A DNA stretch of 64,000 bases, taken from positions 100,603 through 164,602 of the forward strand of contig CAYYNN010000001.1 in the NCBI GenBank assembly GCA_964473175.1, read 5' to 3'. The stretch is from an uncultured Candidatus Saccharibacteria bacterium (lineage in GTDB: Bacteria; Patescibacteriota; Minisyncoccia; Phycocordibacterales; UBA9973). This document shows, one piece after another, positions 6,810 through 61,471 of this stretch (position 1 is the stretch's first letter; the number at the start of each line of letters is the position of its first letter). The translations under genes were made by a program, and so were the position numbers. The notes beneath the pieces were generated by a model. That model ran no database searches, was not told the origin of the DNA, and saw only the letters and a program-made list of their open reading frames with translations.

Positions 6810-8546
6810 TTATGAAAGCGTTGCCTTGATACGTCTCACGCCCGCACTTGATGCTTCTTCTTTTTGTATTTTGAAATGACCAAGCTCTCCAGTATGAGTG
6901 ACATGCGGTCCACCGCAAAATTCTTGGGAGAATACTTTGTCAGCATTGTCGTGAATCATATACACAGACACAATGTCTGGATACTTGGTGCCAAATTCCA
7001 TCTCAGCACCGAGTGCTTCGGCGTCCGCTCTTGGCATTTCGCGGCGAGTGACTTGTAAGTCTTCTGCGATCTTTTCATTAACCAAGTCTTCTACTTTTTG
7101 CTTTTCTTCATCAGTGAGTTTGCGGTCAAAGTTGAAGTCAATACGCAGACGCTCTTCGGTGATGTTGCTTCCCTTTTGGTGAATGTCAGCAGAGACGACT
7201 TCTTGGAGCGCCTTGAGGAGCAAGTGATGAGCAGTATGCAGTTTGGTCGTTGTATCTGATGTGTTCGCAAGGCCGCCTTTGAACTTCTGTTCACTACCAG
7301 AGCGAGAAAGGTCTTGGTGTGCTTTCATTTCAGAATCAAATTTTGCACGGTCAATAGTCATGCCTTTTTCTTGAGCCAATTCTTGTGTGAGTTCTATCGG
7401 GAATCCGTAGGTAGTTGCGAGAACAAATGGATCAGCACCTTTTGCAAATTCCTTGAGACCGGATTCAAGAGTTTTTGAAAACTTGTCTATTTCCTTTATA
7501 AAAATAATTGGAATTTCTGTATGTTGTATTTCTGGATACTGTGTCCAATAGTGTTTCTGATACAAAACGGGAAGCGATTCAAATGTAGCAGCTCGCAAAC
7601 CAATCTTTTTGGACTGCATTACCGCACGACGAATCAAACGGCGTAAAATATATCCTTGATCTTTACTGCCTGGAAATACACCATCAGCAATAAGGAACAC
7701 AGCTGTTCGCACATGATCTGCAATAATACGCGCACTTCGTTCATTTGGAAGTGTCGAACCTTGTGCAATATCGCTCATAATAGACGCAAACATGTCTGAT
7801 TCATAGACAGTGGACTTCCCCTGCACTATCATAGCGATGCGCTCAAGACCTGAGCCGGTGTCTACATTCTTTTGTGACAGCTTACCAATGACTTTGTCAT
7901 CGCGCTTTTCATACTCCATGAACACATCGTTCCAAATCTCAACAACGTGCCCTGCATCGTCAGCTGCAACGTATTGGTCATGTGTCATGTCACCGAGCGT
8001 ACCGGTAACGTCGTAGAACATCTCGGTATCTGGCCCACACGGACCATTGTCTCCCGGACTCCACCAGTTGTTTGCTTTTGGGAGAAAGTATATTCGATTC
8101 TCTGGGATATATTGCTTCCATATCTCGACGGCTTCCATATCTCGTGGCGCATCATCGTCTCCTTCAAACACGGTGACGTAGAGACGGCTCGGATCAAGCC
8201 CAAGTCCTTCATCTTTGCTTGTGAGGAATTCAAAAGACCATTTGATTGCGTCTTCTTTGAAATAGTCTCCGAGCGACCAGTTCCCCAGCATTTCAAAAAA
8301 TGTGAGGTTTTTGTGGTTGCCCACTTCTTCGATATCTCCCGTACGCACACACTTCTGACAGCTCGCGAGACGTACTCCTTGCGGATGCTTTTCACCCATC
8401 AGATACGGTACGAGTGGTTGCATACCTGCGGTATTGAAAAGTACTGATGGGTCGTTCTGAGGCACGAGTGATGCGGACGGCAAAATAGCGTGTCCGCGTT
8501 TTGCGAAGAAATCGAGGAATCGTTGTCTGATTTGAGCTGAGGTCAT
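6810..8546 (-). CDS. alaS: alanine--tRNA ligase (short form lacking the C-terminal C-Ala domain)
   Basis: Class II AlaRS N-terminus (…FLDFFAKRGHAILPSASLVP…FNTAGMQP…) plus the editing-domain motifs HTAHHLL and CGGPHV. At 578 aa it is well short of the ~870 aa usual in bacteria. Confidence 0.85.
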   Translation of the reverse strand: MTSAQIRQRFLDFFAKRGHAILPSASLVPQNDPSVLFNTAGMQPLVPYLMGEKHPQGVRLASCQKCVRTGDIEEVGNHKNLTFFEMLGNWSLGDYFKEDAIKWSFEFLTSKDEGLGLDPSRLYVTVFEGDDDAPRDMEAVEIWKQYIPENRIYFLPKANNWWSPGDNGPCGPDTEMFYDVTGTLGDMTHDQYVAADDAGHVVEIWNDVFMEYEKRDDKVIGKLSQKNVDTGSGLERIAMIVQGKSTVYESDMFASIMSDIAQGSTLPNERSARIIADHVRTAVFLIADGVFPGSKDQGYILRRLIRRAVMQSKKIGLRAATFESLPVLYQKHYWTQYPEIQHTEIPIIFIKEIDKFSKTLESGLKEFAKGADPFVLATTYGFPIELTQELAQEKGMTIDRAKFDSEMKAHQDLSRSGSEQKFKGGLANTSDTTTKLHTAHHLLLKALQEVVSADIHQKGSNITEERLRIDFNFDRKLTDEEKQKVEDLVNEKIAEDLQVTRREMPRADAEALGAEMEFGTKYPDIVSVYMIHDNADKVFSQEFCGGPHVTHTGELGHFKIQKEEASSAGVRRIKATLS

Positions 8547-18042: not shown

Positions 18043-18420
18043 CTATTCGTTATGAATAGGTTTTTTAGTAATTATAATTTTCTCAATATTTTTATCTTGA
18101 TCTGATGACAAGATTTCGGAATATGAGCCCGGCTGCATTTTATACTGGGAAAGGAGTACAACGCGTATTGTTGTCATAATATCATCTATGTTTGGGATAT
18201 ATACAATGCGTGTATTTTTATCCGAAATACTAAATGATTCTAAGGCTCGAATACTCATTGTTGCATTACTAATGTTTTCAACTTGTATTGCTATAAAAAC
18301 TTTCTTTCCTGCTATCATCTGAGGATATATATAGGAATGTTTGTTTTTATCATTAACCTGAGCACTACTTGTGGTAGTAAAAGCGATCGCAATCACTAAC
18401 GAAAGGACTATTTTTTTCAT
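18043..18420 (-). CDS. hypothetical secreted protein
   Basis: 125 aa; N-terminal signal peptide MKKIVLSLVIAIAFTTTSSAQ. No family assignable. Confidence 0.4.
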   Translation of the reverse strand: MKKIVLSLVIAIAFTTTSSAQVNDKNKHSYIYPQMIAGKKVFIAIQVENISNATMSIRALESFSISDKNTRIVYIPNIDDIMTTIRVVLLSQYKMQPGSYSEILSSDQDKNIEKIIITKKPIHNE

Positions 18421-31475: not shown

Positions 31476-31976
31476 TTACTTTTTTAGTGTAACGATTTTG
31501 TTGATAATCAACTCAGTAACAATTTGTCGTGCAATATCTTCTTTGGTACTTGTATCCACCGAAGGAGTGAACTGAAATAAATTGCGGCTATTTTCAAATA
31601 AACTTATTTGTTTTATAGCATCATGTATATCTTCAGTAAGCTCAGGCTCTAGTACACCTTTTGATATCAGTCTTTTTTCGATAGTACTTTTATTGGCATT
31701 AAGAAATATACTAAAAATAGTAAAGTCTGAATTTTCTACGAGATCTATGAGGTCAGACACGTATGGATTCATTATTAATATTTGTTTACTTTCTTGTGCT
31801 TTTAAAATATCTGAAATGAAAGACTGGACGTTTTCTTTGGAGGGATATTGTTTTAATGCAACAGATTTTGATGACATTATTGAATATGGCTCAAAGTATT
31901 TAAAGAGTTCTTTTGTTACTGAAGTCTTTCCTACGCCGTAGGGACTACAAATAGCTACTCCGTCATATTTCTTCAT
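31476..31976 (-). CDS. P-loop NTPase/kinase-like protein
   Basis: 166 aa; Walker A motif AICSPYGVGKTSVT near the N-terminus. No closer family assignment possible by eye. Confidence 0.5.
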   Translation of the reverse strand: MKKYDGVAICSPYGVGKTSVTKELFKYFEPYSIMSSKSVALKQYPSKENVQSFISDILKAQESKQILIMNPYVSDLIDLVENSDFTIFSIFLNANKSTIEKRLISKGVLEPELTEDIHDAIKQISLFENSRNLFQFTPSVDTSTKEDIARQIVTELIINKIVTLKK

Positions 31977-57754: not shown

Positions 57755-57964
57755 CTATCCAATCCGAAACACCTTGTGCGTCCGCACCCCACCAGTCACC
57801 ATTCGCGCACTTGTACCAAAATGCTTCGCGAGAAGATAGCTCACAACTTTGTTGGCATGCCCATTCTGCGCACTCGCCCGCACGTATACCTCGTACGCAT
57901 CAGGCGCTTTTTCTACAATGCGATCTTCGTGACTATCGGGATAGACGGTGACTTTGATGAGCAT
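57755..57964 (-). CDS. DUF167 (YggU/UPF0235) family protein
   Basis: About 69 aa from MLIKVTVYPDSHEDRIV…; matches the YggU pattern (…IKV.V.P.S…A.…G.AN..L…LAK.FG…V.G). Confidence 0.55.
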   Translation of the reverse strand: MLIKVTVYPDSHEDRIVEKAPDAYEVYVRASAQNGHANKVVSYLLAKHFGTSARMVTGGVRTHKVFRIG

Positions 57965-57965
57965 G

Positions 57966-58718
57966 TTATTTTTGAAATACAAACAAATGTTCGTGCATGA
58001 TAAGTAAGAAATTTGCCTCTTTTGATTTGTTTACCCAAAAACCCGTAGCCTTACAGTTGAATTGTCGCTTGATAATGTCTTCTTTGAGTAAGAACCCAGC
58101 TTTCAAAAACCTCTCCATCACTTTGAAAGCGAGTGGTTGGTACATTTTATTTCTTCTTGTATCTCCCATCAGTATCGCGCAATATTTCCCTGGTTTGAGT
58201 ACTCGATACAGTTCATGGGCCACCTTTTCCATTTCATCTGAAAATGCATCAATACTATGAATCCCTGATATATCTTCCGGGATTTTCCCTTCACTATATT
58301 TAATAATATCTGCATATGGCGGGTGGGTAAGGACAAAATCTATTTCATTATCCTTAATAAATTGTAAATCTCGAGCATCACCTTTGACTATTCTTTGCTT
58401 AGCTTTGTTATCTACTTCAAAGCCGACGGATTTTTTTGTTCGTTCAAGCGCCTCATTGTTTACATCTACACAAGTAATATGGCGATTGAGAATCTTGGCT
58501 TCTATAGCAGTAGTACCACCACCTATCATACAGTCGAGCAAATGATCGCCTTCTTTTGAATATCTCAATATTAGATTGCGCACTACTTCAGGTGCCCAGT
58601 TCCCTCGCCAATCTGATGCGTGTGTCGCCCAGTTCCCCCTCCGCGGAAAAGCCCAGACTGTAGTGCACTCCATTTCAAAATTTTCCGGATGAAGTTTTAG
58701 TTCTTTAGGCAAATTCAT
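57966..58718 (-). CDS. DNA methyltransferase, N4/N6 (pfam01555-like) family
   Basis: 250 aa. The SAM-binding region (…DHLLDCMIGGGTTAIEAK…) is preceded by …HASDWRGNWAPEVVRNLI… (compare HPTQKP…LI). The catalytic motif THPPY sits about 70 aa downstream, followed by …LKPGKYCAILMGD…. Confidence 0.7.
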   Translation of the reverse strand: MNLPKELKLHPENFEMECTTVWAFPRRGNWATHASDWRGNWAPEVVRNLILRYSKEGDHLLDCMIGGGTTAIEAKILNRHITCVDVNNEALERTKKSVGFEVDNKAKQRIVKGDARDLQFIKDNEIDFVLTHPPYADIIKYSEGKIPEDISGIHSIDAFSDEMEKVAHELYRVLKPGKYCAILMGDTRRNKMYQPLAFKVMERFLKAGFLLKEDIIKRQFNCKATGFWVNKSKEANFLLIMHEHLFVFQK

Positions 58719-58734
58719 TTTTATTTATTATCAT

Positions 58735-59538
58735 CTAAATTTTTATTATATATTTTTTTGCCTTTATAATTTTCATCCCTAAACTAGATATTGTAGTATC
58801 TTGATCAAAATCATATGCCCAATATTCAATACAATCTCCTTTTGTTTCAGCTAACAAAACTAGAGAATAAACTTTTTTAGTCTTAAGAAGATTTTGCCAT
58901 TTGAGTAATGGAATAAGTACCTGGTTTATATCAAAGTCAGACTGTTTGAAGGAACTTTTCATTTCAACAATAACAACATCTTTAGCCCATTCGAAACCGC
59001 CATCTATTTCTATTTGAGCTTTTTTTACATCAACCATAACGCCATTAATAAGAATGTGAGTGTTTGCTCTCTGTCTTCCTCCTGTAAATAAAACTCCAGG
59101 ATCTTTTAGGTTATAGAAATCTGATATTAATCCTATATGATTTGCAATTGCAAGAAGTGTGGTTTCTCCTGGGTTTGACTTAGTTTTTAATGTATCCTTA
59201 ATCCCAATAAACATCCCCTCTGTCAGCGCATTTTTTGGTGGGAAAATACCACCGTTTTTTGGTTCTGAAAAATTAATACTTGGAGGACGAGCAGTTATTT
59301 TCCATGAATTTCTAGTTAATGGAAGCTTTGAAATTCCTCTTTTCTTAATTGCTAACAACTTCTCATGCTCATAGTGAAATATACGAATTTCTCCTTGTCC
59401 TGATTTTTTATATTTTGATAAAATAGGAATGAGATCTTCTTTTGTGTAAACAACAGAATCAACGCCTTTTATTCTATTATCCCAAATTTTCTCTAAAAGC
59501 TCTTCCCACGCTTTTTCTTTCCAAGAATCCTTTTTCAT
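58735..59538 (-). CDS. putative type II restriction endonuclease
   Basis: 267 aa. No family motif recognised by eye; a possible PD-(D/E)xK-like element lies at …EIDGGFEWAKDVVIVEMK…. The call rests on its position between the two MTases (M-R-M order as in MboI) and its REase-like size. Confidence 0.4.
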   Translation of the reverse strand: MKKDSWKEKAWEELLEKIWDNRIKGVDSVVYTKEDLIPILSKYKKSGQGEIRIFHYEHEKLLAIKKRGISKLPLTRNSWKITARPPSINFSEPKNGGIFPPKNALTEGMFIGIKDTLKTKSNPGETTLLAIANHIGLISDFYNLKDPGVLFTGGRQRANTHILINGVMVDVKKAQIEIDGGFEWAKDVVIVEMKSSFKQSDFDINQVLIPLLKWQNLLKTKKVYSLVLLAETKGDCIEYWAYDFDQDTTISSLGMKIIKAKKYIIKI

Positions 59539-59542
59539 ATAT

Positions 59543-60499
59543 TTAATAATTAGTTACCAAAACCTCAGTTATTTTCCCTCTCCCAGAGGCTTTTGAATTT
59601 ATAGCTCTTCCTGCAGAAACTTTGTTTATACGAATACCTTTAAGATTTGAATAGATTTTATTAATAAATGGTGTATCAGAATTTGAAAGCATCACAAAAC
59701 AACCCTTATTGCTTAACTCGACAAAAGTATCGCGGAGCTCTAGCTGTTCTTTATCCAAGAAAGATTCTTTGGTATACGACGTAAATGATGCAGTTTTACT
59801 TACTGGATAGTATGGTGGATCAAAATAGACGAAGTCACCCTTTTTTGCCTTTTTTAGTATAGCTTTATAATCTTGATGTTTAATTTCAATATTTTGCAAT
59901 GCGTTGGATACTCGTCGCAAATTTTCTGCATCACAAATCTTGGGATTAGTATATTTTCCAAATGGTACATTAAATCCCCCCTTACTATTTACTCGGTACA
60001 TACCATTAAAACAAGTACGGTTCAAAAAGATAAATCTCGAAGCAATAGCAAGATCTGTGAGTTTATTTGTATCTTGTGCACGAATCTTTAAAAAGTATTC
60101 TTTATCAGTTTTATGTTTTTTAAGCGAAATGATAAGTTTTTCTACATCATTTTTAATAGTGTTATATGTAACAACAAGCTCTTTGTTTAAATCTGATAGA
60201 AAACCATTTTGTGGAAGAAGATCAAAAAACACTGCGCCACCTCCAACAAACGGTTCAAAATATCTTCCTTTAGTGATATCAAATTTCTCTGGTGGGTATA
60301 GATTTAGTTTTCTAAACTGTTCTAGAAGTTGTCTCTTGCCTCCAACCCATTTTACAAAAGGTTTTGGCTTTTCGTTCAGAAATTGAGTCGCATATGCAAT
60401 AGGATCTTTATTCCCTGCTTGCAACAAAATATGCTGCGCCAAAATCGCATTTATATTAAAAGTCTCTTGTATAGCTCGAATATCCACCTTATTCGTCAT
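59543..60499 (-). CDS. Dam-family N6-adenine DNA methyltransferase (alpha class)
   Basis: 318 aa; Dam signature …KPFVKWVGGKRQLL…, motif I FEPFVGGGAVFF and motif IV FVYFDPPYYP at the C-terminus. Confidence 0.85.
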   Translation of the reverse strand: MTNKVDIRAIQETFNINAILAQHILLQAGNKDPIAYATQFLNEKPKPFVKWVGGKRQLLEQFRKLNLYPPEKFDITKGRYFEPFVGGGAVFFDLLPQNGFLSDLNKELVVTYNTIKNDVEKLIISLKKHKTDKEYFLKIRAQDTNKLTDLAIASRFIFLNRTCFNGMYRVNSKGGFNVPFGKYTNPKICDAENLRRVSNALQNIEIKHQDYKAILKKAKKGDFVYFDPPYYPVSKTASFTSYTKESFLDKEQLELRDTFVELSNKGCFVMLSNSDTPFINKIYSNLKGIRINKVSAGRAINSKASGRGKITEVLVTNY

Positions 60500-60537
60500 T
60501 AGTAGTATTTTACCACCATTTAACTGTTTTCCTATAT

Positions 60538-60933
60538 CTACCTATTCAACCACGTCACACTTAACTGCAACACCGTCGCAAAACTCACCCACGCTAGATA
60601 CGGAATATTGATCAAGGCAACCCACTTGATATGGGGATAGATCGCAACCATTGCCCAGACGAGCGTGATGAGGACAAGGAGGATGTCGATCGCGGCGAGG
60701 AAGTTGTTCTTGAGGCCGAACTGGAAGTAGGTAAAGGAGAAGTTGAAAATAAGGTTGAGGACAAATGGGAACGCGAGTATGCGTGGAAGCTCGCTGCGTA
60801 TCACCTTGAGAAATACGGTGCCAAAGCTCACCGTGATGAGTATATAGAGTACGGTCCATACCGGACCAAAGAGCCATGACGGTGGCGCCCATGAAGGACG
60901 GATGAGAGTCGAGTACCATGAGGACGAATTCAT
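60538..60933 (-). CDS. tspO: TspO/MBR (tryptophan-rich sensory protein) family membrane protein
   Basis: About 131 aa from MNSSSWYSTLIRPSWAPPSWLFGPVWTVLY…; 5 TM helices. GC content (~50%) is well above that of the adjacent R-M genes (~30%). Confidence 0.8.
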   Translation of the reverse strand: MNSSSWYSTLIRPSWAPPSWLFGPVWTVLYILITVSFGTVFLKVIRSELPRILAFPFVLNLIFNFSFTYFQFGLKNNFLAAIDILLVLITLVWAMVAIYPHIKWVALINIPYLAWVSFATVLQLSVTWLNR

Positions 60934-60983
60934 ACCTTTATAGTCCCACAAAATCAGTCTTTTTCATACTGTTTTTAATATAT

Positions 60984-61011
60984 TTGACATTTTATAATTA
61001 TTATGTAAAAT
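60984..61011 (+). promoter_or_regulatory. putative promoter ttgaca-N16-(tgt)taaaat with an extended -10, driving 61028 (+)
   Basis: ttgaca at 60984-60989; the TGn element plus taaaat at 61003-61011; ATG at 61028; no SD. Confidence 0.4.
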
Positions 61012-61027
61012 ATAAAAAAACTTAACT

Positions 61028-61471
61028 ATGACACAAAAAGGATCATTACCCACCAAAGGTAAGATAGAGTTTGAGTTAAAAACAGAGCAATTAATGCTTT
61101 TCCAAAAAGGACTCCTCTCTAAGGTTGAAATTGAAGCAATCATATCTTTCCCTGAAAAACCTGAAATTTCAAGCAAAAGAATTCGATTCGAAGTTTTAAA
61201 CGTCTGGAGTCCAGAAGATAGTTCTCAAAAAACTACTTCTACTGCTACAGATGGGAATATGGGGAAAGCTACGCTTAATGGAATGCACCAGGCTCAAATT
61301 TACCTTGTCGACCACATACTTAGTAAGTCATGTTGGTCATTCACTGGAACACTGGTTGGCTCAAAGCAGATACCTATTGTTATCCAATACTATCAGTGCT
61401 TAAATTATGGAACCTACTGTTTTAAACCTGATAATATGGAGCTCAGTGAATTCAATTTCCGATTAAATTAA
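61028..61471 (+). CDS. hypothetical protein (orphan)
   Basis: 147 aa; no recognisable motif. Its own promoter and terminator flank it. Confidence 0.45.
   Translation: MTQKGSLPTKGKIEFELKTEQLMLFQKGLLSKVEIEAIISFPEKPEISSKRIRFEVLNVWSPEDSSQKTTSTATDGNMGKATLNGMHQAQIYLVDHILSKSCWSFTGTLVGSKQIPIVIQYYQCLNYGTYCFKPDNMELSEFNFRLN

Follow-up and report, generated by a model that had tools for sequence, protein, structure and literature searches.

A putative GATC-specific Type II restriction-modification cassette with a DUF6997-family nuclease in a Patescibacteria genome

Organization of the Locus

The 64,000-nucleotide (nt) stretch analysed here, which we refer to as the window, comes from contig CAYYNN010000001.1 (positions 100,603 to 164,602) of an uncultured Candidatus Saccharibacteria bacterium, a member of the Patescibacteria or Candidate Phyla Radiation (CPR). 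It carries three intact genes that we interpret as a compact Type II restriction-modification (R-M) cassette, most probably specific for GATC. All three lie in the same orientation on the minus strand, with open reading frames (ORFs) of 318, 267 and 250 amino acids (aa): M1, a Dam-family (D12), alpha-class N6-adenine DNA methyltransferase (MTase) at 59543..60499; R, a predicted Type II restriction endonuclease (REase) at 58735..59538; and M2, a second methylase of the N6/N4 type at 57966..58718. Only 4 nt separate M1 from R and 16 nt separate R from M2, in agreement with the initial annotation of this DNA, which had described three co-oriented and tightly spaced genes. The contig of the window has an identical counterpart in the public Logan assembly of SRR12712864, and another in an NCBI contig of 219 kb.

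The First Methylase

M1 matches PF02086 (E-value 1.2e-62, 212 bits against a cutoff of 22) and TIGR00571 (290 bits, cutoff 115), confirming its earlier description as an alpha-class Dam-family MTase. The order of its motifs is that of the alpha class, with FxGxG (EPFVGGGAVF) preceding DPPY (YFDPPYYP), and the N-terminal KWxGGK loop is present. Its closest solved relative is DpnM (2dpm) at 249 bits, followed by E. coli Dam at 121 bits, and residues K50, N165, R169, P179 and Y183 of M1 align with K9, N120, R124, P134 and Y138 of E. coli Dam, which we take from the EcoDam-DNA structure literature to be contacts to the DNA and its GATC site. M.LlaDCHIA, encoded on the Lactococcus plasmid pSRQ700, is 47% identical to M1 across 281 aa. 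In the DpnII system DpnM methylates GATC in double-stranded DNA, and the product of LlaDCHIA, which belongs to a system related to DpnII, is GmATC (PMC4132740). On the strength of these similarities M1 is predicted to make G(m6A)TC. The protein begins with an extension of ~45 aa (…FNINAILAQH…; window positions 60365-60499) that is a conserved feature of its homologues from CPR cassettes but that DpnM and E. coli Dam lack, and which may be a small DNA-binding or regulatory module.

The Middle Protein

The initial annotation saw no recognisable family for R, which proved incorrect. Residues 116-264 match Pfam PF22518 (DUF6997) at 3.9e-20 and 73.2 bits (cutoff 27), and the protein also matches the REBASE-derived PADLOC model REase_II PDLC03513 at 4.3e-10; an NCBIfam scan of R and two of its long-form relatives, described below, returned no family. 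A set of 5.8 billion proteins yielded 114 homologues of R, all of them annotated as hypothetical and nearly all ~267-272 aa long, 49-70% identical and from CPR bacteria. In an alignment of 27 of these homologues, E125, E177, D179, E192, K194 and Q206 are invariant.

The AlphaFold model of R (predicted local distance difference test (pLDDT) 92, predicted template modelling score 0.89) consists of a winged-helix-like N-terminal region and a C-terminal PD-(D/E)XK core with the alpha-beta-beta-beta-alpha-beta layout, in which a strand bearing an acidic residue is followed by one with (D/E)-x-K. E177/D179 and E192/K194 are placed on neighbouring strands and E125 where a helix begins, as is classical for PD-(D/E)XK enzymes, and together they are the candidate catalytic residues. 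No PDB entry is close to R, as phmmer gave nothing and the best Foldseek E-value was 2e-3. The initial annotation had allowed for the middle ORF belonging to a non-nuclease family; the fold, the invariant residues, the REase_II match and the linkage to Dam genes in ~40 loci (see below) all identify it as a nuclease.

We considered two other identities for R and rejected both. The protein has no PF04556 match at E ≤ 0.01, and hhalign against three DpnII-family proteins gave a probability of 0.4%, leading us to reject a diverged DpnII/MboI enzyme. A methyl-dependent, DpnI-like nuclease was rejected because it would attack DNA modified by its own two flanking methylases. A tblastn search of R against plasmids returned no match.

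Full-length distant relatives of R measure 426-448 aa and have the architecture DUF6996-DUF6997-DUF7226, with DUF7226 at about residues 285-430. R stops at the end of DUF6997, and is therefore a short-form variant of the family. There is no Pfam match to PF22515 (DUF6996) in R, and hhalign pairs R from residue 8 on with the long-form N-terminus, whose residues 9-75 are DUF6996; the CPR profile as a whole aligns to the first ~250 residues of the long forms with a probability of 99.2%. Both forms have the AQIEIDGG...E-x-K motif and a position directly after a Dam gene, whereas the long forms are only 23-39% identical to R, carry the ~140-aa DUF7226 domain at their C-terminus and have no M2 partner. 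The two length classes were also apparent in a profile search of 1.84 billion representatives, where the 318 clusters found at E ≤ 1e-3 fell at ~250-270 and ~420-450 aa.

The relatives at 23-39% identity outside the CPR clade are spread over Bacillota (Metabacillus, Oceanobacillus and Streptococcus mitis/oralis), Bacteroidota, Actinomycetota, Methylophilus, Oligella and Treponema. A scan of one genome per species gave 52 loci with relatives of R, with a Dam gene upstream of the R-family gene in ~40 of them and a beta-class MTase upstream in five others. At ~30 distant loci, from Bacillota, Bacteroidota, Actinomycetota, Proteobacteria and Spirochaetes, the Dam gene is directly upstream and its product is 37-54% identical to M1. 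One such pair of Dam and a long form is found in Methylophilus methylotrophus DSM 46235, and the MmeII system of this strain recognises GATC (PMC2582602), which is no more than suggestive of a GATC link for this nuclease family.

The Second Methylase

The initial annotation had called M2 an MTase of the pfam01555 type in which the S-adenosylmethionine (SAM)-binding block comes before an HPPY motif, and this order is confirmed by the match to PF01555 (81.6 bits, cutoff 26.7), which falls into two stretches. In beta-class MTases the counterpart of residues 19-98 of M2 is C-terminal (YhdJ 177-249, CcrM 195-247 and LlaDCHIB 205-261) and that of residues 109-250 is the N-terminal catalytic half, and partial NCBIfam matches likewise show the permutation. 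Motif I (DCMIGGGTT) of M2 thus precedes motif IV (THPPYA), making the protein circularly permuted relative to the beta-class members of PF01555; motif I followed by motif IV is the canonical order of the Rossmann fold. Both motifs are invariant, H132-P-P-Y135 being identical in 21 of 21 homologues, and H132 is present as well in a 59%-identical homologue from Fusobacterium. Motif IV of M2 is therefore an invariant HPPY in place of D/N/SPPY. The PADLOC model MTase_II PDLC03376 matches M2 over its full length (6e-92).

In a BLASTP comparison of M2 with M.LlaDCHIB, only the SAM-binding block aligned (residues 43-98 to 205-261). Because of this partial alignment and the permuted order of motifs, we rejected M2 as a beta-class enzyme of the DpnA/M.MboIC/LlaDCHIB type. 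M2 belongs to a large and remarkably well-conserved family. Of the 8000 candidates scored in a wider search, 7974 had E ≤ 1e-10, a number that may include other PF01555 methylases. The best 120 homologues are 81-92% identical to M2 and come from several CPR phyla and a Nitrosarchaeum metagenome-assembled genome (MAG), while the Dam and nuclease proteins of the same cassettes are only 60-70% identical.

Related Cassettes and the Nuclease Slot

The Dam-DUF6997-M2 triad occurs in at least nine distinct CPR loci (L003, L006, L009, L012, L013, L014 and L020 among them) with differing neighbours and sometimes with small inserted genes. In a lineage of Falkowbacteria (L003 4540-5999, and also L004, L005 and L008), Dam and the nuclease are separated by two inserted genes, for a membrane protein of 137 aa and a DndB-like (PF14072) protein of 346 aa. 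At five CPR loci a homologue of R (57-65% identical) is paired only with one beta-class MTase, which is 54.5% identical to M.LlaDCHIB of pSRQ700.

M2 homologues are also found with a different nuclease. Proteins 82-87% identical to M2 (59% in Fusobacterium) occur in Dam-DpnII(PF04556)-M2 cassettes, such as locus L064, a variant in the Nitrosarchaeum MAG (L060) that has GmrSD and Mrr in addition, and a Dam-DpnII-Mrr-M2 arrangement in the cultured Fusobacterium vincentii SB055 (L093, NZ_CP084075.1). As close homologues of M2 are present in these cassettes, the nuclease slot is interchangeable, and the position between Dam and M2 swaps between DpnII-family and DUF6997-family enzymes. The Dam-DpnII(PF04556)-M2 cassettes of CPR bacteria, the Nitrosarchaeum MAG and F. 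vincentii are the nearest relatives of the window locus among the known systems compared. The F. vincentii record is listed in PLSDB as "plasmid pSB055A"; its length of 2.1 Mb, with a single feature annotated, suggests a chromosome that was mislabelled.

Both nucleases are present in L013 (4105-7553 of LBRD01000001.1, Parcubacteria GW2011_GWC1_36_108), where the genes are Dam, a DpnII-family REase (288 aa), a DUF6997 nuclease (269 aa) and M2. This locus may be midway through the replacement of one nuclease by the other, or it may be a system with two REases. A precedent for the latter is SsuDAT1I (Sekizaki et al. 2001), which reportedly has two isoschizomeric REases in one GATC cassette. A further Dam...M2 frame, in L062 (2653-4985), has a GmrSD-type (type IV) nuclease and a 204-aa protein with no Pfam match in the nuclease slot; a relationship of R to the 204-aa protein was rejected (hhalign probability 0.8%).

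Comparison with Known GATC Systems

The MboI system, M.MboIA - R.MboI - M.MboIB/C, is directed at GATC. It resembles the window locus in having three co-oriented genes in M-R-M order, a Dam-like first methylase, sizes of ~250-320 aa and a GATC site, which is probable for the locus described here. However, the nuclease of the window is of the DUF6997 type and not of PF04556, and M2 has motif I before HPPY, with only the SAM-binding block in common with beta-class DpnA/M.MboIC, so that only the first gene of the cassette is homologous to the MboI system. The DpnII and LlaDCHI systems (dpnM-dpnA-dpnB; pSRQ700) share the similarity to M1 and the combination of two methylases with one nuclease, and M2 may have a DpnA-like role in protecting single-stranded DNA; the order there is M-M-R as opposed to M-R-M here, and the families of the REase and of the second methylase differ. 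More alike are the Dam-DpnII-M2 cassettes (L064, L060 and L093), which have the same Dam, the same M2 family (59-87% identity) and the same order, and differ in a DpnII-family nuclease, sometimes with GmrSD or Mrr added, in place of the DUF6997 enzyme.

The initial annotation had proposed a GATC system of the MboI/DpnII type with M-R-M order. The gene order and the Dam methylase of that proposal stand and its GATC type is supported, while the family of the REase and the type of the second methylase do not. The locus is best described as a short-form DUF6996/DUF6997 putative REase set in a Dam...M2 frame, which at other loci houses enzymes of the DpnII type. It is an ordinary three-gene defence cassette, unusual only in that its nuclease and second methylase come from little-studied families.

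Composition and Acquisition

Composition was compared among 58 non-overlapping ORFs of the window, which have a mean GC of 0.422 (standard deviation 0.044) and a mean GC at third codon positions (GC3) of 0.376 (standard deviation 0.082). M1 (GC 0.330, GC3 0.239, GC z = -2.06) and R (GC 0.315, GC3 0.210, GC z = -2.41) are adjacent genes and have the two lowest GC3 values of the 58. The GC of the locus overall is ~0.34, that of the window 0.42 and that of the flanking genes 0.455-0.50. The initial annotation had given ~30% GC against ~45% in the flanks; the low GC is upheld by M1 and R, while the figure itself is nearer ~34% and M2 does not share the bias. Two small ORFs elsewhere in the window, 18043-18420 (-) and 31476-31976 (-), have a GC of 0.315 and are as AT-rich as the nuclease gene.

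Across eight loci, the GC of the cassette is never clearly above that of its flank, is within ~0.01 of it in the hosts of lowest GC and is far below it in three. The values are 0.32-0.39 for the cassette and 0.454 for the flank in the window, 0.33-0.35 and 0.507 in L003, and 0.42-0.49 and 0.54 in L014. This lag in GC and the differing neighbourhoods of the cassette support transfer. The suggestion of horizontal transfer, which the initial annotation would have given up had composition been uniform, is supported by two of the three genes being compositional outliers and by the cassette's presence in unrelated neighbourhoods. It is likely that the cassette was acquired horizontally, at a time and in a direction that can be inferred rather than read directly from these data.

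GATC Specificity and Alternative Explanations

The nuclease family partners with all three types of GATC-associated methylase: DpnM-like, DpnA/LlaDCHIB-like, and the M2 of DpnII cassettes. This partnering, together with R occupying the position that a bona fide GATC REase has in the sister cassettes, is our main argument for GATC specificity and for a role in restriction. We infer the specificity, the cleavage activity and the role of M2 from protein families and gene linkage. That the locus is an R-M system with the second gene as its nuclease seems quite probable to us, and a GATC recognition site is only slightly less so; the two taken jointly are a more modest proposition, towards which we still lean.

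If the system works as proposed, M1 would methylate GATC on both strands to give G(m6A)TC, and R, probably as a dimer like orthodox Type II enzymes, would cut unmethylated GATC using E177/D179/E192/K194 and metal ions. M2 would modify the same site again, and its substrate may be single-stranded or hemimethylated DNA. The analogy here is to DpnA of the DpnII system, an enzyme that shields single strands taken up in transformation (PMC3812788). The M-R-M order, the 4- and 16-nt spacers and the lack of internal terminators would fit a single transcript from which the methylase is made before the nuclease, and genes so ordered and so tightly coupled would allow the DNA of a new host to be modified before restriction sets in. 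A bolder extension is that the short DUF6997 forms are a distinct family of GATC REases that has repeatedly displaced the DpnII-family enzyme in the Dam...M2 frame, with L013 as an intermediate caught in the act, and that M2, analogous but not homologous to DpnA, is a single-strand GATC methylase guarding the DNA that CPR bacteria take up by natural transformation; we regard this as speculative and rather doubtful. In L014 a 90-aa ORF between M2 and tspO (7512-7784) resembles by eye the N-terminal domain of the competence regulator TfoX, which is of interest given the idea of M2 protecting transforming DNA.

Several observations weigh against our interpretation. The window shows no depletion of GATC (258 sites, where a Markov model predicts 280 and a zero-order model 236, or ratios of 0.92 and 1.09), and eight GATC sites lie within the cassette itself. 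The under-representation of GATC proposed as a check by the initial annotation was accordingly not seen, and since depletion is not required of such a system, its absence neither supports nor refutes GATC specificity. We could document no specificity for any DUF6997-family enzyme; among the papers searched, none turned up for DUF6996, DUF6997, DUF7226 or their Pfam accessions, nor for CPR combined with DpnII. R is without the C-terminal DUF7226 (PF23871) of the long forms, and the co-occurrence with a DpnII enzyme in L013 could mean that R-type proteins are accessory nucleases. The AlphaFold 2 model of M2 reached a pLDDT of only 43.6, with an alignment that was probably too shallow at 80-90% identity. 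As for acquisition, the composition of M2 is ordinary (GC 0.392, GC3 0.352, z = -0.67), no empty site was found among 27 metagenome loci with relatives of the neighbouring major facilitator superfamily (MFS) gene (≤62% identity), none of which was syntenic, flanking direct or inverted repeats are absent apart from short, imperfect matches at chance level, and no integrase, transposase or other mobility gene is nearby. Among other words in the window, CTAG is strongly rare (52 observed, 97 expected by the Markov and 236 by the zero-order model), AATT, GGCC and CATG fall mildly below expectation, and TGCA and GCGC exceed it.

These points could be read in other ways. D12 methylases include enzymes for other sites, such as GATATC and CATG, so the cassette could be functional with a non-GATC site common to M1, R and M2, as the unremarkable count of GATC and a nuclease family lacking a documented specificity would permit. 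We find this unlikely, as M1 is much closer to DpnM (249 bits) and M.LlaDCHIA (47%) than to other solved D12 enzymes, the partners of the nuclease span all three GATC-associated methylase types, and a long-form relative adjoins a Dam gene in a strain that produces the GATC-specific MmeII. It is quite unlikely, in our view, that R is instead an accessory Dam-associated nuclease, with a MutH-like role in nicking or repair or as the helper of a separate REase, and that the two methylases are orphans. The L013 homologue beside a complete DpnII-family REase in the same cassette and the short form without DUF7226 speak for this, yet R is the sole nuclease between both methylases in the window and in most CPR loci, five loci are simple pairs of MTase and nuclease, and R matches the REBASE-derived REase_II model. 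The family is also distributed patchily and independently of context, as R-M systems are and repair genes are not, and a cassette with two REases would reportedly have its precedent in SsuDAT1I.

Finally, the cassette could be an old resident of the genome, its low GC reflecting gene-specific constraints, or an inactive remnant. The ordinary composition of M2, the two other small ORFs of equally low GC (0.315), the failure to find repeats, an integrase or an empty site, and the tight packing of the genes in what looks like a host operon from tspO to the DUF167 gene would all suit a long residence. Against this, the two lowest GC3 values of 58 ORFs belong to the adjacent M1 and R, other CPR genomes carry the cassette at unrelated positions, and in higher-GC hosts its GC falls behind that of the flanks; decay into a remnant is at odds with three full-length ORFs whose catalytic motifs are intact. 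We consider this explanation very unlikely, and favour a GATC-specific cassette acquired by transfer.

A cassette of this kind turns what would be a "hypothetical protein / DUF6997" of the Patescibacteria into a testable restriction endonuclease and gives a functional lead for DUFs 6996, 6997 and 7226. It is also an example of modular R-M evolution, with one Dam...M2 frame accommodating two unrelated nuclease families, singly or together, and a tidy case of non-orthologous nuclease replacement that will not surprise the specialist. The general understanding of restriction-modification is unchanged. The predicted GATC barrier is of practical interest for work on CPR bacteria, whose genetic manipulation is very difficult, as DNA prepared in dam+ E. 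coli should be able to evade it.

Flanking Genes

The cassette is part of a row of five minus-strand genes, tspO, M1, R, M2 and a DUF167 gene, with spacers of 38, 4, 16 and 1 nt. On its downstream side lies the DUF167/YggU-family gene (57755..57964, -; PF02594 at 2.2e-10, TIGR00251 at 47 bits), which has a host-like GC of 0.49. Its ATG at 57964 is 1 nt past the TAA stop of M2, so that the distance reported initially holds with this start and co-transcription with M2 is probable; extended to a TTG start, the longest ORF would run 17 nt into M2. The upstream neighbour, outside the R-M system, was correctly recognised as tspO (TspO/MBR; 60538..60951, -; PF03073 at 1.5e-30) and begins the row 38 nt ahead of the Dam start. 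Its true start is likely the ATG at 60933, giving a protein of 131 aa, and a 131-aa tspO gene is called on the identical Logan contig.

Upstream of tspO is an AT-rich divergent intergenic region (60952..61027) with the only good promoter-like sites near the locus, at 61016..60989 on the minus strand and 60984..61011 on the plus strand. This region may hold the promoter of a tspO-M1-R-M2-DUF167 transcript. On the minus strand, a terminator scan from tspO to the MFS gene gave no terminator-like site, and in the promoter and terminator scans the number of sites was no higher than in shuffled sequence. Co-transcription of the whole row, with the DUF167 gene included as the initial annotation had suggested, is compatible with these scans, which fit it and prove nothing.

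With a GC3 of 0.68 (z +3.7), tspO is the strongest compositional outlier in the window, and the different origins that the initial annotation suggested for tspO and the R-M genes are a reasonable hypothesis. In two other CPR loci (L014 7906-8379 and L016 2181-2654) a gene for a TspO protein 33-37% identical to this one is likewise no more than a few kb away from the cassette, which could be due to chance, an insertion hot spot or co-travel. Beside tspO, a 147-aa ORF at 61028-61471 (+) with a GC of 0.365 and no family match may belong to the same foreign patch.

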